A stretch of 32,000 nt of DNA from NCBI RefSeq assembly GCF_035285525.1, contig NZ_JAYKGW010000187.1, positions 1 to 32,000 of the forward strand. The letters run 5' to 3'. Below the pieces are notes generated by a model. It was given only the letters and a program-made list of their open reading frames with translations, was not told the DNA's origin and searched no databases. Below, piece by piece: positions 3,044-32,000 of the stretch. Numbering within the stretch: position 1 is the first letter of the stretch; the number at the start of each line of letters is the position of its first letter. Source of the DNA: Okeania sp. Its GTDB lineage: Bacteria > Cyanobacteriota > Cyanobacteriia > Cyanobacteriales > Microcoleaceae. Made by a program: the position numbers and the translations under genes.

Positions 3044-3162
3044 TAGGGTTGGGAGACCAAACCCCGACGGTCTTAAATTCTACTATGGTTTGGTTTAGAA
3101 ACCAAAATCCTATTTTTATTTATCCTCAAGCTTCCCACCTTCTGCTTTTTCAGCAAATCCTA
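3044..3162. mobile_element. Short MITE of the TAGGG...CCTAAT family
   Basis: Starts tagggttgggagaccaaacccc and ends tttttcagcaaatcctaat. Carries an internal accaaacccc/ggtttggt inverted repeat like the one at 23202-23266. Abuts the next element. Confidence 0.5.
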
Positions 3163-3375
3163 ATTAGGGTTGTCTGAAAAAGTATGAAAGTATTAACATT
3201 CTAAAGTTTTAACCTTTTTATGTAGGGAAAAAGTACCTGGTTTTGAGCTGCTTAATGCACGATTCCCGAAAAATCAAAAATTTACCATCTTCGCTTCATC
3301 GTTGGGAAAAAAAATTACTTTCCTACTCCTCTACTCCCCTACTCCTGAAAAAAGACCTTTTCAGCAAACCCTAAT
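3163..3375. mobile_element. MITE, ATTAGGG...CCCTAAT family
   Basis: TIR attagggttgtctgaaaaag versus cttttcagcaaaccctaat. TA on both flanks (3161-62, 3376-77). The interior holds the cacgattcccgaaaaatcaaaaattt core and ctactcc repeats. It ends 3 nt from the GT2 stop codon. Confidence 0.72.
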
Positions 3376-8692: not shown

Positions 8693-8980
8693 TTCAGTTA
8701 TCAGTTATAGCGCTGTGCCCAGGCAATAGGCAACAGGTAATAGGCAATAAGGGGAATAAATTAGTGATAAGATAAAAATTTTAGCTATTTATTACTCTGC
8801 TGAAAAAGTCCGAAAGTATTGAGCCTTTTTAGGTAGGAAAAAAGTACCTGGTTTTGAGTTGCTTAATACACGGTTCCCGAAAAATCAAAAATTTACCATC
8901 TTCGGCTCATCGTTGGGCAAAAAAAATTACTCCCCTACTCCCCTACTCCCCTACTCCCCTACTCCCCAACTCCCCTACGC

Positions 8981-9205
8981 CTTAAAAAAGACTGAAGAAG
9001 CGCAAACCCTATTTAGCCCCTCCAGCAATTTGTAAATATACCAGCGCTTATTGCTATGTCAGTTATTAATACTGACTCTCGTAAGAACGTTGCATAAGGG
9101 CGTCCCTACCCTTAAAAAAGACTGAAGAAGCAACCCTATTTAGCCCCTTCGGCAATTTGTAAATATACCAGCGCTCATTGCTATGTAAGTTATTAATACT
9201 GACTG
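8981..9205. repeat. Tandem duplication, period 130 bp (about 1.7 copies)
   Basis: cttaaaaaagactgaagaag...ccctatttagcccc...gcaatttgtaaatataccagcgct.attgctatgt.agttattaatactgact occurs starting at 8981 and again at 9111. It lies next to a MITE-like segment at about 8797-9012. Confidence 0.8.
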
Positions 9206-18252: not shown

Positions 18253-19065
18253 TTACGAAAGTATTTCAATTTCAATCCAGACTCCTGTTTTTTTAGTATT
18301 AGGAATATATTCAATAGTAAGCTTGGGAATACAACTCAGGCGATCGTCCTGAAGCACCCCCGCCCCATTTAATGTTAAAGCATCAAGACAGGCTCCTGCT
18401 AAATTATCTAAATCAGAATTAGTGCGATGTTTTCCACAAAAACTAATATAAATAGCTGCTCTTTTTATTGGTAAATTTATCTCTAAATTCAGTTCAGAAA
18501 TTTGACGGTAAATTTCTACTTCTGCTTGATTTCTCCAGGCACGATATTGAGGTGGTAAATAAGTACCATTAGCAGTAACTCGCGGACGTGCTTTAGGAAC
18601 TACTTTCCCTGGAAGATAGAAATGAATTGTTGGAGAATTTTCAGATTCTTTAGATTTAAGGGGAGAAGTTGTATAATTCTTAGAATTATCCAAGGACAGA
18701 ATATTTTTGTTAATTTGGGTCTCTAGTTTTTCTGGCAAATTATCTTTTGGCTCCAAAGTAGCAAATTGCATTTGATATTTATCCTCTGTAGCAGATAAAT
18801 CAACTTTTCTATAAGTATCTAATTGTTTCCGGAAGCTAGGCCAACTTTTAGCTATTTGTAAATAAGTCTCTGCACAGTTGGTTGAGAAATGACAATTCTT
18901 TTGGAACCAAGTTTGCCATTCAGTAGGTGAAAATAAAGTTTTAATTTCTAATAATAATTGACCCAAAGAATAAGCATAAGCCATAGAATTTTTTGGGTCA
19001 TTTTGGCATTTTTGATGTTTGAAATTAATATCATTTATTAAGTTTTTCCAGTTAATTAATACCAT
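18253..19065 (-). CDS. RusA-family Holliday junction resolvase fused to an N-terminal DUF3102-like domain
   Basis: The C-terminal ~130 aa read PKARPRV...YRAWRNQ...SDLDNLAGACLDALTLNGAGVLQDDRL, matching the RusA D-x-D-N...DAL...DD pattern. The N-terminal LGQLLLEIKTLFSPTEWQTWFQKNCHFSTNCAETYLQIAKSW resembles DUF3102. Confidence 0.85.
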   Translation of the reverse strand: MVLINWKNLINDINFKHQKCQNDPKNSMAYAYSLGQLLLEIKTLFSPTEWQTWFQKNCHFSTNCAETYLQIAKSWPSFRKQLDTYRKVDLSATEDKYQMQFATLEPKDNLPEKLETQINKNILSLDNSKNYTTSPLKSKESENSPTIHFYLPGKVVPKARPRVTANGTYLPPQYRAWRNQAEVEIYRQISELNLEINLPIKRAAIYISFCGKHRTNSDLDNLAGACLDALTLNGAGVLQDDRLSCIPKLTIEYIPNTKKTGVWIEIEILS

Positions 19066-19314
19066 CTTAAATAGGGAGTAGGGAGTAGGGAGTAGAGGTT
19101 AGTGATTAGTTATTAGCTAAAGGAGTAGGGAGTAGGGGTTAGTTATCAGTTATTTAGTTACAGCAGATTCCAAGTATATCAAGTACAAATATTAATAATT
19201 ACAGGACTTACAGAAAACCAATATATCTAGCCATTTATTCCTACAAATAGGGAGTAGGGAGTAGAGGTTAGTTCAGGACTTACGCAAGACACTATATATA
19301 ATGTCTATTAATTT

Positions 19315-21008: not shown

Positions 21009-22958
21009 CTACTCTCCTTTCCCTGAATTCAAAACCTTCACAGCCGCTCCATCATTCAACTTCTGTAAACCTGAAACAATCAACTTATCCCCAGACACCA
21101 AACCCGACACCACCTCAGTCATATCACCCTGAACCAAACCCAACTCAATTATTTGACGTTTTGCCTTTTGCTGTTCACCTTCTCCCTCCAATAAATACAC
21201 AAATCGTGTCTCCCCTTCAAAAACTACTGCCGTCATTGGTACTACTACTGCTTGACGCTGTTCCCAAATCGCATTAACTTGCACAAACTGACCATCTTTT
21301 AAATTTCCAGCCCTATTATCCACATCTACTTTAACCAAAACAGTTTGAGAATCACTAACAGTAGGAGAAATAAAACTAACCTTCCCAACTCCCAAAATCT
21401 TATCTTCAGAACTCCTAATCTCCACAGGTAAACCCAGTCGTAAATCCTCTCGTCTCTCCAAAGGAATTGGTAAATTTACATCTAATACCTGATTTTCGGT
21501 CACAGTAGTTATAGTGTCACCATCATTAACAAAATCTCCTATCTTTACAACCATATCTCCAATCACACCTGCAAAAGGAGCAACAACCACCATATTGTCT
21601 AACTCAGCCTCCCAATTTTCTACCTCCGCTAAAGCTGCTCTTACTTCCGCCTCTGCCTGAGCAATTTCTTCCGAGCGAGTACCATTTTGCAACTCCTCTA
21701 AATTACTACGAGTCTCTGCTACCTCTGCCTCTGCTCTGGCAATCTCTTCCGGACGAGTACCATTTTGCAGTTCCTCTAAATTACTACGAACCTCTGCTAC
21801 TTCTGCCTCTGCCTGAGCAATTTCTTCCGGGCGAGTACCATTTTCTAGTCTTCTCAATATCTGGCGTTGTTGTTCTAATGCTGCTTCTAATGTTTGAATT
21901 GTAGATTCTCGATTTCTCTGTAACTGAGTCACTCGTTTTTTTGCTTCTTCTAATCTGGCTTTAGCTGCTCTCTCTTCCTGAAAAATTTCCTGAAAAGTTA
22001 ACTCAGCGATCGCTCCTTCTGCTCTTAAATTTTGGTTTCGCGTGACTTCTTCACTAGCTAATTCTAATTCTGCTTTTTGTACTTCTATTTGTGCCTCAGC
22101 TTGAGCAATTTCTTCTAAAAGACTACCCGTTCTGGCATTTTCTAGTCGTACTTTTGCCTCTTGTAATTCTGCTTTAGCTTCGGCAATCTCTTCCTCACGA
22201 GTACCAGCCCGGAGTTCAGCCAAGTTAGCTTGAGATTGTTGGAGACGTGCTCTAGCTGCGGCAATTTGTTCTGGTCTGGCTCCTGTTTTTAGTTGTGCCA
22301 AAGTAGCTTGAGATTGTTGGAGACGTGCTTTAGCTGCAGCAATTTGTTCTGGTCTGGCTCCTGTTTTTAGTTGTCCTAAACGTGCTTCTCTTTGCTGAAA
22401 GTTAGCTTTTGCTCTCCTTAAGTTAGCTTCCACATTATCACTTTTGAGTTTAGCGATCGCCTGCCCTTCAAAAACAAAAGTTCCTTCTTTTACTAAAATT
22501 TGGACTACCCTTCCATCTATTTCTGGTTTAATACTAACTGAGCGTTTGGCTTCCATAGTTCCTACAAATTCTGAAGTTTCTTGGAGGGAGGTAATTTTTA
22601 TTGGTATTACTTTAACTAAGGGAGTTCGTCGTCTACTTGGAGCTGTTTTTGCTGGTTGGTTTGTTGTTTGGTTAATATTAGATTGTCTAGATTCCCACCA
22701 TTGTCCTCCTAGAAATCCCAGTCCGAGAGTGGCAATAATTACTGTTACCCAAAGTACAACAGAAAAATTCTTTTTTTCAGACTGAGACGATTGAGGAATA
22801 GTATTTATTTGCTCTTCATGGAATTCTGTTTTAGTATTTTCTTGTAGATTTTCTATCGGTTTAGGTTTTTCTTCAATTACTGAGTTTGATGAATTATTAT
22901 TTAGCATTTTTTGACTTTTATTTTTAATTTTTTTGACTAAAGTTATAGTAATTCTCAA
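21009..22958 (-). CDS. HlyD/membrane-fusion-family periplasmic adaptor with an expanded coiled coil
   Basis: N-terminal TM helix (VVLWVTVIIATLGLGFLGG). Barrel-sandwich motifs are present (GTMEAKRSVSIKPEIDGRV..., APFAGVIGDM). About 8 copies of the G(A/T)RPEEI-A-A-A hairpin repeat. An alternative start lies at 22907 (MLNNNSS). Confidence 0.9.
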   Translation of the reverse strand: MRITITLVKKIKNKSQKMLNNNSSNSVIEEKPKPIENLQENTKTEFHEEQINTIPQSSQSEKKNFSVVLWVTVIIATLGLGFLGGQWWESRQSNINQTTNQPAKTAPSRRRTPLVKVIPIKITSLQETSEFVGTMEAKRSVSIKPEIDGRVVQILVKEGTFVFEGQAIAKLKSDNVEANLRRAKANFQQREARLGQLKTGARPEQIAAAKARLQQSQATLAQLKTGARPEQIAAARARLQQSQANLAELRAGTREEEIAEAKAELQEAKVRLENARTGSLLEEIAQAEAQIEVQKAELELASEEVTRNQNLRAEGAIAELTFQEIFQEERAAKARLEEAKKRVTQLQRNRESTIQTLEAALEQQRQILRRLENGTRPEEIAQAEAEVAEVRSNLEELQNGTRPEEIARAEAEVAETRSNLEELQNGTRSEEIAQAEAEVRAALAEVENWEAELDNMVVVAPFAGVIGDMVVKIGDFVNDGDTITTVTENQVLDVNLPIPLERREDLRLGLPVEIRSSEDKILGVGKVSFISPTVSDSQTVLVKVDVDNRAGNLKDGQFVQVNAIWEQRQAVVVPMTAVVFEGETRFVYLLEGEGEQQKAKRQIIELGLVQGDMTEVVSGLVSGDKLIVSGLQKLNDGAAVKVLNSGKGE

Positions 22959-23147
22959 AAAGAATGAGGTACAAAATTCCTAATTTTTAGGCAATAGGAA
23001 ATAGGAATTATCGTTATGTGGGAATAGGAAAAAAACTGTACCTCAGTTACTTGAGAAACGTTATTATTTCGAGTTACTACTCATTTTTTATACTTTCTTA
23101 GATCGAGAATTTATCAATTATAATTCTCCTCTGAATTAAATGATTTT

Positions 23148-23379: not shown

Positions 23380-24060
23380 GTTATTTTTTATTCTATTTTT
23401 AATTAGGGCTGAATGATTAATTATAAAAACATTTATATCATCAGGACTTACGCAAAGGTACTTACTATATCTATATGTAGATTTAAAAAACTATTTCGTA
23501 ATAGTTTTAAGTACTATATCTAGGGTTGCTGCGTAAGTCCCGATCATGTTCGTTTGAATACTTAAACTTTGCAGGAAGTAAGGCACAAGACAGAAAGCAG
23601 AAGGAAAGAAAAGGTAACTATGGGAGAAATTTTTTTTTATAACTGATTATCTGAAAATGATATTACAGGTAAAAGATTGATACTTCTTAGATTCGCAAAA
23701 AGTGCTAGATAAAGAGTTTAAAACCTGCAAAAAATTAGCATTTTAGACTAACTAAGGACAGAAAAATTGAGAGGCAATTATTACTCCTACTTTTTCTAAA
23801 TTACCTGTTTGTCCTGACTCCTAACCCCTACCTCTACCACTCATACTTTCCATACGCAAACCCTAATTACTTTTGACTTCCGTAAAATTGAATAACCCAT
23901 AAAAAGAAGTATTCGAGCGGATGAAATATATCGTAACAAATAATCAGTTAGTTTTCAATATTTCTTAATATTTGTCCAAATTTATTTAATCCTTTGTCAT
24001 GTTATGGTAGTAACTATGTTAAAATTTTGATAATTAACAAAAACTATAACGTTATAGTTA

Positions 24061-24350
24061 TGACGGAATTATTAGTAAGTACAACGGAAGCACCTTTGAA
24101 AAACCTAGCCAATCCTAGACATTTTTAGGAATTGTCTCTTCATTGGTTGCAGATTAAGTCAAAACTGACTACGTTGGCAGGTCACGACCACTATAAGTGA
24201 ACTCCAGCTTATATCCAGGTCGCTCTAAATTAAGGAAAGCGTTTAGTAGCGCCAATCGGAAGTAGGTTTTGTACCGATAGTGTTTAGAGTATGGACAAGC
24301 CTGGCCAACATAATCGAGGAACACTTTACTGAAAAGGACTAGACGCCAAA
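24061..24350 (+). ncRNA. Putative IscB omega RNA (HEARO-type guide/scaffold RNA); ends are approximate
   Basis: Sits immediately 5' of iscB on the same strand and is less AT-rich than surrounding spacers. Nested complementary segments: 24173-24183/24299-24309, 24186-24197/24208-24221, 24223-24229/24283-24289, 24255-24259/24274-24278. No ORF and no match to the local MITE families. Confidence 0.55.
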
Positions 24351-25655
24351 ATGTCTAACACTAATTACGTTTTCGTCATAGATACAAACAAAAAACCATT
24401 GCCACCCTGTAAGCCAAGTGTAGCTCGTAGATTGTTAAATTCTGCTAGAGCTGCTGTATGGCGACGCTTTCCGTTTACTTTAATTCTCAAAAAAGCTGTA
24501 AAAAGAGTTACCAAAATAACTTTAGTTCTGAAAATTGACCCAGGCTCAAAATTCACAGGTATGGCTTTATTAGAAGGAAATAAGGTGATATGGATGTTAG
24601 AAATTCAACATCGAGGTTCATTAATTTCCGAAAAACTGCAAAAGCGTTCTCAAAGAAGGAGAGCGAGAAGGACAAAAAATCTGAGATATCGTAAACCAGG
24701 ATTACCTAATAAAAAGAAACATACTGGTTGGTTAGCACCTTCTCTCATGCACAGAGTTGAAACTACTATGACTTGGGTGAAACGATTAATGAAGTTTTGT
24801 CCTGTTCAATCAATCTCAATGGAGCTGGTTCGCTTTGATACTCAATTGATTCAAAATCCAGAAATTTCTGGCACTGAGTATCAGCAAGGGGAATTAGCAG
24901 GGTATGAGCTGAGAGAATATTTATTAGAAAAATGGGGTCGTCAATGTGCTTATTGTGGTCAAACTGATACGCCACTAGAGATAGAACATATTCGCCCTAA
25001 GTCAAAAGGAGGTTCAGACCGAGCATCTAACTTAACAGTGGCCTGTACTAAATGCAATCAACTAAAGAGTAACCAAGATGTTAAGGACTTCTTATCTGGA
25101 AAACCAGAATTATTAAAGCGAATACAAACCCAAGCCAAATTGCCTTTAAAAGATGCAGCAGCGGTTAATTCTACTCGGTGGAAATTGTTCAATGCGTTAA
25201 AAACTACAGGTCTGGAAGTAACTACAGGTAGCGGGGGACAAACAAAATTTAACCGAAGAAAACATAAACTGCCAAAAGCGCACTGTATAGATGCTGCTTG
25301 TGTAGGTGAAGTTCGGGAGTTAAACTTTCATACTACCCAAGCTTTAGTTGCTATTTGCAAGGGGCAAGGAGGTAGACAGAAAGCAGCGGTAAATAAATAT
25401 GGATACCCCATAAGGTACAACCCACTAAAACCGATAAAAGGTTGGAATAGTGGAGACTTAGCTTTGAATATGGAAACTGGAGTTGTAGGTAGAGTTAATC
25501 CTCGCTCAAAATCAAATAGTTTTAATTTCACAGTGCCTGGGCACAAAGCCAAAAGTGTTCATGTAAGGAAATTAAAAATTGTACACAAGAAAGACGGTTA
25601 TGCCTATACATTTAGTCCACAGTTGTCCATAGATGTCAAGGAAAATGCCGTCTAA
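24351..25655 (+). CDS. iscB: IscB RNA-guided endonuclease (RuvC-HNH, OMEGA system)
   Basis: 434 aa. PLMP-like N-terminus (VFVIDTNKKPLPPCKPSVARRLL), RuvC-I LKIDPGSKFTGMA and an Arg-rich bridge helix RSQRRRARRTKNLRYRKP. Then RuvC-II WLAPSL...SMELVRFD, HNH CAYCG...LEIEHIRPKSKGGSDRASNLTVACTKCNQLK and RuvC-III HCIDAACVG. A C-terminal ~100-aa domain follows. Confidence 0.93.
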   Translation: MSNTNYVFVIDTNKKPLPPCKPSVARRLLNSARAAVWRRFPFTLILKKAVKRVTKITLVLKIDPGSKFTGMALLEGNKVIWMLEIQHRGSLISEKLQKRSQRRRARRTKNLRYRKPGLPNKKKHTGWLAPSLMHRVETTMTWVKRLMKFCPVQSISMELVRFDTQLIQNPEISGTEYQQGELAGYELREYLLEKWGRQCAYCGQTDTPLEIEHIRPKSKGGSDRASNLTVACTKCNQLKSNQDVKDFLSGKPELLKRIQTQAKLPLKDAAAVNSTRWKLFNALKTTGLEVTTGSGGQTKFNRRKHKLPKAHCIDAACVGEVRELNFHTTQALVAICKGQGGRQKAAVNKYGYPIRYNPLKPIKGWNSGDLALNMETGVVGRVNPRSKSNSFNFTVPGHKAKSVHVRKLKIVHKKDGYAYTFSPQLSIDVKENAV

Positions 25656-25787
25656 AACTTAACAGGTAGTCGTGGCCCTGAAGGAACTTGGAACAAAAAT
25701 AAGCGTAAAGCGAATACTTTTGTTCACGTTCTACGCAAGACTATTGATTATAACAGAAACAACGGAACTTCTCATCCTGCAATTGCC

Positions 25788-26075
25788 GTGAAAGTCGGAA
25801 ATAAAAAGGATTATTGTCACGCTTTGAAAATTCACGGACCCTGCGTAATAGTCTATCAACCCCATCAACCCAATACAAGTCAAGCTGGGGGAGCGCGCTT
25901 GTGGATGGAAGTTGAACCGCAACATAGAGTAGAGCGAGTATATTTTTCCGATGGAGATTATGGTCTGCCTCCAGAAGTGGTTCAGCAAAGACAGACATTT
26001 AAAAAGAAGAAATCAAAAGTCAAAAAGGGAAAACTGAAACCGAAGGGTAAGAAGGGTAATAAAAGAAGAAATTAA
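25788..26075 (+). CDS. Hypothetical protein with a lysine-rich tail; possibly a degraded gene
   Basis: The first canonical start is GTG at 25788. The frame is open and protein-like from 25710 (ANTFVHVLRKTIDYNRNNGTSHPAIA...). The C-terminus is KKKKSKVKKGKLKPKGKKGNKRRN. Two antisense ORFs overlap it, so coding status is uncertain. Confidence 0.4.
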   Translation: MKVGNKKDYCHALKIHGPCVIVYQPHQPNTSQAGGARLWMEVEPQHRVERVYFSDGDYGLPPEVVQQRQTFKKKKSKVKKGKLKPKGKKGNKRRN

Positions 26076-26511
26076 ATAATTTATACAAATAATTAGTCTG
26101 AGAAAGAAGATTTTTGAGCAGTGTCTATTTTCTGTTCTATTTTTTGCTGTCTAATTTTGACGGCTTATAATAAAGAGGTAGCGATCGCCAAAATAATTAT
26201 CAATTTTATACTTCATTTTATGTTTTACCTTACGAAGTTAATAATTCTAGTTAAGAAATAATTTTAAAGAAGCAAAAATCCCAGAGCATAACTATATTGT
26301 TTAGTCTGGAAATGTCAAAGGAGCCGACTTTTTGCATCTAAAATATTGAGATATTAATATTCAAAGCCAAAAGTTTTACCTACTGCTAAAATTTGATAAT
26401 TGATGTTTTAATTTCAACTTGCTCTGTTGATTCTGAATTGTCTAGTAAAAAATCACCAAGCATGATCGCTACCTCATAGTAGTTCTAAGGATCAGATAGA
26501 ATAGACCACTA

Positions 26512-26726
26512 AATAGGGTTTGCTGAAAAAGTATTTTTAAGGGGATGGGGAGATAGGGTGATGGGGTGATGGGGAGTAATTTTGTGACCCAACTCTTCCC
26601 CAAAATATGCTCCTTTTTGATTTTTCAGGAACTGTACCAAAGCTACCCAAAAAGTTGCACTTTTTCCTTACCTAAAAAGGTACTTATATATGTCAAATTT
26701 TTTAGATTTATTCAGCAAGCCCTAAA
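26512..26726. mobile_element. MITE, TAGGG...CCCTA family, complete copy
   Basis: tagggtttgctgaa (26514-26527) versus ttcagcaagcccta (26711-26724), 13/14 as an inverted repeat. TA on both flanks. The interior has gatgggg repeats and the tttttgatttttcaggaactgtacc core. Confidence 0.75.
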
Positions 26727-27205: not shown

Positions 27206-28360
27206 CTACAACTTCAAACTTAACTGTTCATCCGGCGGACTAAAGCCCAAATGCTTCCAACCTGCGGAAGTCACAACCCTACCACGAGGAGTACGTTGCA
27301 TAAACCCAATCTGCATCAAATATGGCTCATAAACTTCCTCAATAGTTTGAGCATCTTCCCCCGTCGCTGCTGCCATAGTCTCCAAACCAGCAGGCCCGCC
27401 ATTATAATTCTCTATCATAGTCCTCAATAAATTACGGTCAGTCCAATCTAAACCTAGAGGATCGACATTAAACAACTCTAAAGCTTCCCCTGCAACCTCA
27501 GCATTTATCGGACTTAACTTTTTGACCTCGGAATAATCTCTCACCCTGCGCAGTAAACGATTAGCGATTCGAGGCGTACCCCGGGAACGACGGGCAACCT
27601 CTTCAGCACCATCCTCTGTAATATCCATATTTAAAAGTTTTGCTGCTCGCATAATAATTAAACTCAGTTCATCAACCTCATAAAACCGTAACCTCTGAAT
27701 AATTCCGAAGCGATCGCGCAGAGGAGAAGTTAAGGAACCAACTCTAGTAGTTGCTCCTACCAAGGTAAAAGGTTTGAGAGGAATACTTTTAGTTTTAGAT
27801 GCTTTACCTTGACCGATTGTAATATCTAATCGAAAATCTTCCATGGCTGGATATAGAATTTCTTCGGTCATTTTGGAAAGGCGATGAATTTCATCTATAA
27901 ATAAAATATCTCCTTTTTGTAAACCTACTAGCAAGCCAACTATATCTCTAGGTTTTTCAATGGCAGGTGCAGTAGTAATTTTACAATTAACTTCCATTTC
28001 GGTTGCCAATATTAGAGACATTGTAGTTTTGCCTAACCCCGGAGGACCATACAATAGTAAATGGTCTAAAGATTCTTTTCTAGATTTAGCCGCCGAAATC
28101 GCAATATTCAATACTTCTTTAAGGTCTTTCTGTCCAATATATTCAGCTAACCTTTGAGGTCGGATTTTTTCTTCATTTTGATTACCGCTTTTTTCTTCAG
28201 TAGTTGCCTCTGCTGCTAATAAAGCTTCTACTTCGGCTGTTTCAGTTTGAGATTTTGATTTTTTGGTTTTATATGAAGTTCTTTTTTCGGAGGCTAAGAA
28301 AATGTTTTCATCTGGCCTTTCTGGTTGAGGAGATTGTTTTTTAGAAGAAAATATGGCCAT
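27206..28360 (-). CDS. ruvB: Holliday junction branch-migration helicase RuvB (with a ~65-aa K/E-rich N-terminal extension)
   Basis: [11 protein letters not shown], Walker [14 protein letters not shown], Walker [11 protein letters not shown], sensor [17 protein letters not shown], and a C-terminal winged helix. 384 aa. Confidence 0.96.
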
Positions 28361-28966: not shown

Positions 28967-29258
28967 TTGATAATGGATAATTAATAATTAATAATGAAAA
29001 CTATCTTTAATTAGGGTTTACTAATTAAAGATAAAAGCATTTACAGATAAAGGCTAAAGTCTTTTTATATTGAAAAAACTGAACTTGTTTCAATTTTAAA
29101 AAAACTCAATATCTTAGCATTTTCGGGAATAAATAATTGGCAACAAATTACTTACCGAAAAATTAGGCTATAAATTCTCTCTATTAATGGAGAAAAAAAT
29201 TTCTTTTAGCTAATCCTATTATTTATAAAAGTAGGTGATTATTAGTTATTGATTATTA

Positions 29259-29521
29259 ATTAGGGCTGGCTGAATAAATATGAAAAGATTGATAGATAAA
29301 AATAAAAGTTTAAACCTTTTCATGTCTGGAAAAAGTACCTGGTTTTTAGCTATTCATGGTGAAAAAGAAGCGTATTTTAGTCATAGAGTATGGGGAAAAT
29401 TAATGGAGAATTCTTCTGACTACCTCCTCTATAATTATCCTGAATTATGGATTCTTGATTCTGACTTCTATCCTGAAAAAAAAAGACTTTTACGGCTCCC
29501 GATAAATCAGCAAACCACAAT
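29259..29521. mobile_element. MITE, ATTAGGG...CC(A/C)(C/T)AAT family
   Basis: TA|attagggctggctgaataaat ... ttacggctcccgataaatcagcaaaccacaat|TA. It shares aaaaagtacctggtttt with 3163-3375 and 8797-9012. It fully contains the 84-aa ORF 29280-29534. Confidence 0.6.
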
Positions 29522-29905
29522 TAGGGTTTACTGATTAAATACCAAAGCTTTTACACATAAAAATTAAAGGCTTTTTCTGGTCACAATAAAGTGCAAAAAA
29601 ATTACTAAATTAATCTTTAAAATTCTGAATCTTTCCTCATAAAAATTGGAAAAATCTAGAAAAATTAATACCTGTAACTATTGCCTATTCTCTACCTTCA
29701 CCAAAAGACTTTATTCATCCAACCCTAATTATTGAAATGCTCCTTAGAAATACTTTTTCAGCACACCCTAATTATCAAATTATTAATTACCTATACTTAA
29801 AACAGAGAGGATTGAATTAAGTACGGAAATATCCTAGCACTTTATTTTTCCTGAAAAGGATAGGCTTGAAATCTCTATAGATTAATTATCAATTATCCAT
29901 TCTTA

Positions 29906-30238: not shown

Positions 30239-31090
30239 ATGAAAGGAATTGTCCGCAAAACTAGCAGGGTTAGCAATTGGTTGACCAAGGTAAATATTCA
30301 TTGGTTAGTTAACTTAAACCTATTATTCACATTAGTAAGAAGAGATTTAGAAGCTAGATATAAAGGCTCAGTTTTAGGCAACTTATGGCCACTACTTAAT
30401 CAACTATCTCAACTTTTAATTTATACTTATGTCTTCTCGATTATTCTGAAAGTTAAGCTTGACCTCAAAGGATTACCAGCAGATAGTAAACTAACATTTG
30501 GATTATGGTTATTTGCTGGATTAATACCTTGGTTAGCTTTTACGAGTGGATTGACTCAAGCTTCTGGTTCTGTAATTACACAGCCTAATTTAGTTAAAAA
30601 ATTAGTTTTTCCCCTTAGTTTATTACCCTTAGTTCCGATTCTTTCAACATTTATAGAAAGTACATTTGGATTAATAGCTTTAATAGTAATGTTTTATATA
30701 TCATCTGGGGCAATAAATCAAACATTATTCCTGTTACCTTTAGTGGTTATACCTCAACTTTTATTAACAACAGGTTTAGGATATTTTACTGCTGGATTAA
30801 CGGTATTTTTGCGAGATATTCCACAGACTTTAGGAGTAATTATTAATCTTTGGTTTTATGTTACGCCAATAGTATATCCGGCATCAGTAATTCCAGAAAA
30901 TTGGCGAATTTGGGTGTTTTGGTTTAATCCTTTAACAGCGATCGCTGAAGTATATCGTGACTTGGTTTTAGTAGGAGAAATTAAGCATTGGGGAGAGTTA
31001 GGAATTTCGGCTTTGATATCTCTACTAATTTTTTATTTTGGCTGGTGGGTTTATCAAAAATTACGTCCTGCTTTTGCTGATGTTTTATAA
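30239..31090 (+). CDS. ABC-2 type transporter permease (polysaccharide/glycan exporter type, Wzm/TagG-like)
   Basis: 283 aa. The N-terminus RRDLEARYKGSVLGNLWPLLNQL is typical of ABC-2 permeases. About 6 TM helices. No ATPase follows within the remaining 900 nt. Confidence 0.92.
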   Translation: MKGIVRKTSRVSNWLTKVNIHWLVNLNLLFTLVRRDLEARYKGSVLGNLWPLLNQLSQLLIYTYVFSIILKVKLDLKGLPADSKLTFGLWLFAGLIPWLAFTSGLTQASGSVITQPNLVKKLVFPLSLLPLVPILSTFIESTFGLIALIVMFYISSGAINQTLFLLPLVVIPQLLLTTGLGYFTAGLTVFLRDIPQTLGVIINLWFYVTPIVYPASVIPENWRIWVFWFNPLTAIAEVYRDLVLVGEIKHWGELGISALISLLIFYFGWWVYQKLRPAFADVL

Positions 31091-31095
31091 GAAGT

Positions 31096-31157
31096 AAGAA
31101 GGAAGAAGGAAGAAGGAAGGAGGAAGGAGGAAGAAGGAAGGAGGAAGAAGGAAGAAG
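31096..31157. repeat. 62-nt uninterrupted polypurine (GAAGGA-type) tract
   Basis: aagaaggaagaaggaagaaggaaggaggaaggaggaagaaggaaggaggaagaaggaagaag contains only G and A on the + strand. It starts 6 nt after the permease stop. Confidence 0.92.
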
Positions 31158-32000
31158 TCAATAATTAATAATTACCAAAAAATGAGGTATAAAGCCTCCT
31201 CTTTGAAGGAGATGAAAAAATATTTAACACGGTTCCCGATAAATCAGTATTTCCAGCCTTCGACTTTAGTCGGAGCTTCGCTGATAACTGATAACTGAAA
31301 TGACCTCTTCTTATAAAGAAAATGATTAGCTAAAAGGATTTTTTTCTTATTTATCCATGAATGGAGAGACTTTATACTTTAATTTTTTCGTAAGAAGAAA
31401 GAAGGAAGAAATATTCAAAAAAAATTTAAAATTATGTACATCTCCAATGTAATTACTCCCCCTACCTAACTCCTAAATTCTAATTGGTATCGAAATCTTA
31501 GAACTTAAAAATCATTGATAAATTATAATAAAAAACTCTAATATGCTGAAAAATATAAGTAATTAATATGCAGGATTTTCCAAGTATTAAATGAATATTT
31601 AGCTTGACTAAAAGATACTAATTTTGGATTCAGTAATTAAGGCTTGCTGATTAAATATCAAAGCATTTATAGATAAAGGTTTGAACAATAAAAGTAAGGC
31701 TCAATTATGAATTAACAGTTATTCTAGAACTCCTCTAAATCCTAACTCTTAACTACTCCTTACTCCCTACTCCCTACCATAGCAAAAAGATTTTCCATAA
31801 GCAAACCCTAATTAATAATTACTCTTAAAAAAATTGAGTATTAGTTCGGAGTGACTTATTTTCTTTTTTTCTCCCTAAAAAGAGAAGCTTTAAACCTTAA
31901 AACTTTGGTATATTTGTATTTTTCCTAGATTTTTAAATTGCTTTTTCCTGCTCCATTCTGAAATAGCTGATGACCTAATACTTATGAAAAAAGATTAATT

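Follow-up and report, generated by a model that had tools for sequence, protein, structure and literature searches.

The window analysed here, a 32,000-nt stretch of Okeania sp. DNA (assembly GCF_035285525.1, contig NZ_JAYKGW010000187.1, positions 1 to 32,000 of the forward strand), carried a locus for an RNA-guided nuclease of the IscB type. This locus very probably represents a single copy of an ISC-type element (IS200/IS605 superfamily) that is non-autonomous and is composed of an omega RNA scaffold module and an iscB module. Comparison by blastn with 79 related loci from a genome scan, the closest of which (84–91% identity) were located in assemblies of Okeania, Trichodesmium, Dapis, and other Microcoleaceae, delimited the element to 1,575 bp (24091–25665, forward strand). 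An earlier reading of the same DNA, made from the letters alone (hereafter the sequence-only reading), had described an intact, stand-alone IscB locus; the insertion of the element into a host gene, the position of the guide, and the mismatches in the guide-adjacent stem of the RNA were missed by it.

Identity and conservation of the IscB protein

The iscB open reading frame (ORF; 24351–25655, forward strand) was the sole long ORF between positions 23000 and 26500, started with ATG, and encoded 434 aa without a frameshift. Its product matched the Pfam model RRXRR (1.3e-65, 220.9 bits) together with three HNH models, and scored 446.9 bits against the NCBIfam equivalog NF040563 (guided_IscB; cut-off 175 bits), residues 7–319 being covered. 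The profile search thereby bore out the intact, frameshift-free IscB of the sequence-only reading. When PDB sequences were searched with phmmer, the top matches were solved IscBs, namely TbaIscB (4.6e-39), HfmIscB, and OgeuIscB (7xht/7utn, approximately 7e-24), with IsrB and Cas9d or Cas9 ranking below them.

Along the ORF (24351–25655), the domains were arranged as a PLMP-like N-terminus, RuvC-I, an arginine-rich bridge helix, RuvC-II, HNH, RuvC-III, and a C-terminal domain (approximately residues 320–434), the last of which presumably interacts with the target-adjacent motif (TAM). Pfam, the PDB matches, and an alignment of the window protein with 25 diverse relatives (26 sequences, 48–90% identity) all agreed with the domain order and motif list proposed earlier. 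The invariant columns of this alignment were all kept in the window protein, including the acidic and histidine residues of RuvC I, II, and III (D63 in IDPG, E158 in ELVRFD, and H311/D314 in HCIDA) and, in the HNH domain, H213 (EIEH), N227, N236, and the CxxC pairs C199/C202 and C232/C235. No catalytic-type residue was substituted, as the sequence-only reading had also held. In the PLMP domain, window residues 4–50 aligned with the N-terminal domain of TbaIscB (...NPLMPTHP... vs. ...KPLPPCKP...), with P19 invariant.

The ratio of nonsynonymous to synonymous substitution rates (Ka/Ks) was 0.09–0.15 between the window IscB and five intact relatives and 0.09–0.17 between intact copies, at Ks values of 0.46–0.87. 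On this sequence evidence, the window protein is a complete IscB, on which purifying selection acts. At least 8000 homologues were retrieved at E ≤ 1e-20, the nearest of which were already named 'RNA-guided endonuclease IscB'. An exact-sequence look-up returned no identical database entry for the window protein, and the best match was 90–91% identical.

The omega RNA scaffold

The segment between the element 5' end and the iscB start codon (24091–24350, forward strand) was assigned as an omega RNA scaffold of the HEARO type on the basis of a match to Rfam RF02033 (HEARO) and of covariation. With E-value reporting, the match extended over 24108–24329 (forward strand; 59.7 bits, E = 6.7e-11) and covered positions 1–211 of the 211-position model. 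Three sister copies that were checked scored 41.7–58.8 bits, and eight more distant cyanobacterial IscB loci scored 125–164 bits. The upstream omega/HEARO RNA expected from the sequence-only reading was borne out by the full-length match and by 11 compensatory pairs, although its score was below the gathering score of 83 bits. By Rfam's own criterion, the window RNA is a divergent subfamily with homologous architecture.

An alignment of the 260 nt from the element 5' end to the ATG of the window and 29 related copies (A1, 30 sequences) was folded with RNAalifold, which recovered the architecture of HEARO with its central stems and the long-range helix that follows CAG. With a HEARO-like structure that included a local guide-adjacent stem (S1, also called P1), 98.5% of the cells in A1 were paired and two-sided changes occurred in 11 of 53 pairs. 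This count was not matched in any of 500 shuffles, and sliding the partners by 1–3 columns lowered pairing to 29–40%. Scaffold identity was 81–92% over the copies (88–92% for the closest) despite the Ks of the adjoining ORF, and the non-coding segment is therefore under constraint of its own. Covariation thus supports a HEARO-type fold of the upstream 260 nt. RNAalifold also paired the 5' CCUUU with the Shine-Dalgarno (SD) region, where an SD-like AAGGA lies within the scaffold segment (approximately 24334–24338, forward strand). That pairing was rejected in favour of the HEARO-homologous local S1, a choice that covariation cannot make because the columns concerned were invariant.

Ends, copies, and mobility of the element

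Homology in the blastn comparisons started at 24091 (at 24088–24089 in a few high-scoring segment pairs) and stopped at 25665 in most matches. When the window was aligned with 29 copies found in Okeania, Trichodesmium, and Dapis, the ends fell at 24091 (CACCTTTGA...) and 25665 (...CTTAACAG), the left junction reading CACCTTTGAAAAACCTAG... and the right one ...GTCTAAAACTTAACAG, and the flanks were unrelated in every copy. Two 1,573-bp contigs (L007 and L008) consisted of the element alone. The copy alignment suggested in the sequence-only reading thus supplied both ends as well as a predicted guide segment (24075–24090), and the locus start given there, 24042, had to be abandoned: it coincided with no feature boundary, 24042–24090 being occupied by a promoter-proximal palindrome and codons 1–10 of a host gene. 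Neither terminal inverted repeats nor target-site duplications were present, no duplicated flank being seen at the element ends in approximately 30 copies. The CAG at the element 3' end was nearly invariant across copies. A small AGACA...TGTCT hairpin was located at 24117–24137.

More than half of the close relatives were frameshifted, truncated, or internally deleted; two-ended copies with a full ORF were the window copy, L001, L002, L003, L004, and L005. Internally deleted derivatives of approximately 440–720 bp had kept the omega RNA and the 3' end and lost iscB (L076–L079:4743–5183, L062:4745–5298, L065:3264–3865, and L063:4975–5691), and those of L076–L079 were a single insertion that four Okeania assemblies share at orthologous positions. 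The derivatives may represent stand-alone omega RNAs that act in trans. In Okeania sp. KiyG1 (L057:5492–5522), a copy truncated at position 776 directly abutted 31 nt left over from a second 5' terminus, which makes it a nested or rearranged insertion. A second match to the 5' terminus within the window (27948–27965, reverse strand; TGCCATTGAAAAACCTAG, 15 of 18 positions, three mismatches) fell inside ruvB with no other element sequence nearby and was probably due to chance.

Given the sharp ends and the unrelated flanks at many sites, the element is mobile rather than domesticated. Of the phrase 'non-autonomous or domesticated' in the sequence-only reading, only the first half could consequently be retained, the many decayed copies likewise speaking against the second. 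The absence of a Y1 TnpA from the 32 kb, also claimed there, was reproduced: neither a Y1_Tnp nor an OrfB_IS605 domain was detected in any window ORF of at least 75 aa. Likewise, neither TnpA nor TnpB was encoded beside the two closest proteins (P0001 and P0002), except for an unrelated TnpB fragment located 2.4 kb away in L108. ISC elements are mostly non-autonomous and mobilised in trans (Kapitonov et al., 2016, PMC4810608), and tnpA is found near only approximately 1.5% of iscB genes (Meers et al., 2023, bioRxiv 10.1101/2023.03.14.532601). Because its absence is the norm both for iscB and for ISC transposons, the missing TnpA is unremarkable here.

Insertion into a multi-copy host gene

The element interrupted a gene for a 188-aa helix-turn-helix (HTH)-like protein in the same orientation, 31 nt after the start of its ATG. 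The 5' stub of this host gene (ATGACGGAATTATTAGTAAGTACAACGGAAG, 24060–24090, forward strand) comprised the first 10 codons from the ATG (MTELLVSTTE) plus 1 nt and aligned with the N-termini of intact 188-aa paralogs in L043 (MVMTLSYVSTTQAAF...) and L010 (MTHTDTVGTTEAAF...). The 3' remainder (25666–26075, forward strand) resumed the frame at 25668 (SRGPEGTWNK...) and ended in a lysine-rich tail. This right flank was homologous to three other loci, among which L043 had an intact 188-aa ORF (L043:5129–5695, reverse strand). A metagenome scan returned 28 paralogs as units of approximately 600 bp, each in a different context; the host remainder shared 76–88% aa identity with them and 86% with L043, and the element was absent from all 28 loci.

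Between the two junctions, all 28 paralogs kept 135 nt that the window lacked, which corresponds to a flush deletion of approximately 45 codons on the guide side. The paralogs read ...ACAGAAG|C(A/T)GC... at the left and ...ACC(A/T)G|GTCGTCG... at the right junction. Both end-points of the deletion were therefore at CAG/CTG in the paralogs, and the element 3' terminus itself is ...CAG.

The host protein gave sub-threshold N-terminal matches to HTH_17/excisionase models (E approximately 0.07). Its family consisted of dispersed proteins of approximately 188 aa in Okeania-type genomes and marine metagenomes (paralogs L043, L010, L063, and L080–L107) and may itself be selfish. A perfect palindrome, CTATAACGTTATAG (24044–24057, forward strand), was situated 2 nt upstream of the host ATG and is host sequence outside the element. 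Its ACGTTATAG core also preceded the ATG in paralogs L043 and L080–L103, and the HTH protein may use the palindrome as its operator.

IscB elements are biased towards co-orientation with an upstream gene, read-through from which is able to make the omega RNA, and they take their guide from the flanking sequence that adjoins the scaffold on its 5' side, beyond the transposon end (Meers et al., 2023, bioRxiv 10.1101/2023.03.14.532601). The co-oriented insertion inside the host gene matches this reported bias.

Predicted guide segment and probable target motif

Because conservation among the 29 copies ended at 24091 and an IscB guide is the 5' flank, the guide of the window copy was predicted as the flanking DNA immediately 5' of the scaffold, GTAAGTACAACGGAAG (24075–24090, forward strand). 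The length of 16 nt is that of characterised IscBs. This segment had a single match in the window. It differed by one mismatch from the N-terminal coding sequence of paralogs L080 and L097, where it was followed by CAGC or CTGC.

The insertion point of ISC elements lies directly 5' to a target of 4 nt, which resembles the element 3' end (Kapitonov et al., 2016, PMC4810608). At the 3' junction of the window element, ACAG (25662–25665, forward strand) was retained and is the probable target/TAM motif, although its extent could be anything from CAG to AACAG; in the displayed host paralogs, the sequence exactly at this junction was ACC(A/T)G. The conserved 3' terminal ...AACAG probably contains the target/TAM motif, and with low-to-moderate confidence that motif was assigned a CAG end. 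The nested or rearranged copies L057 and L063 did not reveal the target.

For the origin of the deletion we propose, with low confidence, either that the guide-side end was joined in a TnpA-type reaction to another target close by or that two insertions recombined. It appears rather improbable that the transposition machinery removed the 131–135 nt of host sequence by one of these routes (through a second CAG/CTG target or a two-insertion recombination) and in one step re-programmed the guide from the original flank to GTAAGTACAACGGAAG. If true, the element could home across the paralogous gene family.

The guide-adjacent stem S1

The 5' strand of S1 (ACCTTTGA, 24092–24099, forward strand) paired with the consensus 3' strand TCAAAGGT in 28 of 30 copies. 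At the RNA level, the first 9 nt, (C)ACCUUUGA, paired in those copies with UCAAAGGU, just 5' of the conserved GCAG. S1 is the counterpart of the first HEARO helix, which read GUCAGC/GCUGAC in the distant HEARO of L015. In the window, the 3' strand was the variant TCATTGGT (24140–24147, forward strand), in which AA was replaced by TT at 24143–24144 and an extra T was present at 24139/24140. The window RNA consequently reads UCAUUGGU preceded by an extra U (24139–24147), which leaves two U.U mismatches in S1.

The duplex energy of the consensus S1 was −10.4 kcal/mol, vs. −6.4 kcal/mol for the window in the same register. An alternative register 17 nt downstream, in which TAGCCAAT (24106–24113) pairs with ATTGGTTG (in RNA, UAGCCAAU/AUUGGUUG), reached −7.5 kcal/mol. 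For IsrB, nicking is reported not to require the stem-loop that S1 encloses (Hirano et al., 2022); S1 itself is not known to be dispensable. The word 'intact' in the sequence-only reading accordingly applies to the ORF; it does not extend to the omega RNA of the window copy, which has a lesion in its guide-adjacent stem and is possibly impaired.

Alternative explanations

Several results weighed against a functional element of the ISC type. At the gathering threshold, no Rfam family was matched anywhere in the 32 kb. The single-sequence fold of the 276-nt RNA (guide plus scaffold) was no better than shuffles (z = −0.07), a test that is uninformative for a protein-scaffolded RNA, and the DNA folds of both termini, examined for subterminal hairpins of the kind that Y1 TnpA recognises, likewise did not surpass shuffles (z = −1.1 to +0.6). 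No sigma-70-like promoter was detected on the forward strand just upstream of the element, which at the same time fits read-through from the host gene. A helper Y1 TnpA was identified neither in the window nor on the contigs of P0001 and P0002. No empty site was found when the joined flanks of 21 two-ended copies and 15 single flanks were compared with all loci, and for this reason we infer the TAM and the exact 3' boundary. Finally, the S1 lesion weakens the stem; it was unique among the 30 copies and was found in none of 109 loci. Because its two U.U mismatches were unseen in the 29 sister copies, full activity of the window copy is uncertain.

On one alternative view, the window holds a dead or dying copy, a stranded relic without a transposase whose ORF is open by chance and whose omega RNA the S1 lesion has disabled. 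We regard this as unlikely, though as the most serious of the alternatives. The AA to TT change and T insertion affect an otherwise invariant S1 3' strand, at a cost of approximately 4 kcal/mol, the decay of more than half of the close relatives is in line with such a fate, and the window has no TnpA. On the other hand, the ORF has no lesion and has kept all its catalytic residues, and Ka/Ks in the lineage is approximately 0.1. Pairing of S1 over 3+3 bp, or in the alternative 8-bp register, would still be possible, and the dispensability for nicking of the stem-loop within S1 in IsrB (Hirano et al., 2022) also speaks against this view. Moreover, an intact IscB could use the omega RNAs of other copies in trans.

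Co-option of the IscB by the host, for example for defence or regulation, with loss of mobility, would account for the absence of a TnpA neighbour and for an intact ORF under purifying selection. This domestication is very improbable: the transposon ends are sharp and the same as in approximately 30 copies at unrelated sites, the element disrupts a gene rather than forming part of a conserved operon, and its close relatives adjoin unrelated housekeeping genes. In addition, no CRISPR (clustered regularly interspaced short palindromic repeats) repeat family was matched in the 32-kb window by the Rfam scan, and no cas gene was present among the window ORFs. Database names suggest a further possibility, since several homologues are labelled '5-methylcytosine-specific restriction endonuclease McrA' by JGI and 'HNH endonuclease' is the name in older NCBI records. 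A generic HNH/McrA-type restriction or homing endonuclease without RNA guidance is, however, next to impossible to reconcile with an HNH domain lodged within a RuvC fold that is split and has a bridge helix, with 447 bits to the IscB equivalog and solved IscBs as best PDB matches, and with the attached covarying HEARO/omega RNA.

Proposed mode of action and significance

For the preferred reading, an ISC-type element carrying its own omega RNA and iscB, the following mode of action is proposed by analogy with described IscB systems. Transcription from the host-gene promoter would enter the element and yield an RNA whose 5' segment (approximately 16 nt, 24075–24090) serves as the guide, the remainder being the scaffold that IscB binds. 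The ribonucleoprotein would recognise a match to the guide and then the TAM, probably within ...AACAG, after which cleavage would fall to HNH on the target strand and to RuvC on the non-target strand. In nature, the DNA attacked would be the empty donor joint left by excision through a Y1 TnpA supplied in trans; repair of the break from a sister copy would restore the element. Moves to new sites would need a TnpA encoded elsewhere in the genome.

Beyond annotation, the locus is of little importance: it adds one more intact IscB, at most 90–91% identical to known entries, to a large known family and implies no new family category. Mildly new are the sub-threshold omega RNA of the clade, termini and a probable CAG-ending target that are absent from the 2016 catalogue, and the combination of insertion and deletion in a multi-copy HTH gene. 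As the four tested omega RNAs of the clade were below the Rfam threshold, HEARO screens at the gathering cut-off would miss it. The clade termini (CACC... and ...AACAG) hint at a TAM uncatalogued for ISC elements, possibly of interest for the mining of compact editors. The locus is also a natural case of an IscB element that lies a short way into a gene, in the orientation of that gene, a position in which the guide RNA can come from host transcription.

Surroundings of the element

The neighbours in the window were ordinary chromosomal genes, including a glgC-like gene and genes for DnaJ, an ABC transporter, an alpha-amylase, an asparaginase, and an HlyD-like protein, as well as ruvB. The description of the DNA as saturated with miniature inverted-repeat transposable elements (MITEs) in the sequence-only reading was qualitatively correct, as 52 direct and 63 inverted repeat families occurred in intergenic DNA, many of them ending in TAATTAGGG.../...CCCTAATTA. 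MITE-like short dispersed repeats were located at 3156–3219, 23395–23437, 26509–26534, 29003–29066, 29252–29315, 29513–29576, and 31629–31692, and some of these families were common to the window and to Trichodesmium and Okeania loci. Two inverted repeat pairs (23817–23881/26842–26906 and 18008–18166/29531–29689) were present, one of which brackets the whole HTH-gene/IscB region.

The HlyD-like ORF (649 aa, 21009–22958, reverse strand) contained three to four tandem 78-nt (26-codon) repeats at 21636–21875 and 22082–22227. Tandem oligomer arrays were situated by several genes (8916–8981, 19068–19154, and 31089–31171) and consisted of CCCCTACT octamers, GGAGTAGG-type repeats, and AAGGAGG purine runs. 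A 270-aa ORF (18253–19065, reverse strand), which has both a DUF3102-like N-terminus and the domain of the Holliday-junction resolvase RusA, may be a prophage remnant. Outside the window, three CRISPR-DR37 repeats (45.4 bits each) were observed at L049:6028–6210; a distant cyanobacterial IscB, which has a strong HEARO match, lies approximately 3.1 kb upstream of them.

Comparison with known systems

With OgeuIscB and the other solved IscBs (PDB 7utn, 7xht, 9k30, 9k2z, and 11hx), the window protein has the domain order and catalytic residues in common, the matches extending over residues 5–321. These proteins are only distant relatives, and since the PDB matches end at approximately residue 320 and leave the C-terminal, TAM-interacting domain uncovered, their TAMs are not transferable to the window IscB. 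The RuvC-bridge helix-HNH core is also common to Cas9 and Cas9d, but the profile matches were weak (Cas9d 1.1e-15, Csn1 1.5e-4) and far under the model cut-offs (57 bits vs. 375 for Cas9d, 20 vs. 100 for Csn1). Unlike Cas9 systems, the window locus has no REC lobe, CRISPR array, or cas genes.

The RNA matched the full model of Rfam RF02033, and its central stems, its long-range helix downstream of CAG, and its conserved ACGUU and CGAGG...UUAC motifs are shared with HEARO. In contrast, S1 and the hairpins that it encloses are rewritten in the window clade, with ACCUUUGA/UCAAAGGU in place of the GUCAnn/nnUGAC of the model.

GstIscB/ISGst of Geobacillus stearothermophilus (bioRxiv 10.1101/2023.03.14.532601) resembles the window element in its omega RNA upstream of iscB, bounded by the guide-side transposon end, in the absence of TnpA from the element, and in its co-orientation with the upstream gene. 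Its proposed donor-joint cleavage role in element retention is the model adopted here for the window element. The two differ in host phylum and in end sequences, and the TAM of GstIscB is TTCAT (written 5' of the left end).

A further resemblance was to the ISC transposons of cyanobacteria and other bacteria (ISC2/IscB; Kapitonov, Makarova and Koonin, 2016, PMC4810608). Like these, the window element is within approximately 1.3–1.7 kb, non-autonomous, and multi-copy, codes for IscB as its sole protein, has neither terminal inverted repeats nor a target-site duplication, would depend on a Y1 TnpA in trans, and probably has its target motif abutting the 3' end in the iscB sense. The described ISC families have 5'-GTCA... 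termini and the targets N|ATGA, GT|GG, or GT|RA, whereas the window element has the termini 5'-CACCTTTGA... and ...CTTAACAG-3' and, unlike those families, a target that appears to end in CAG.

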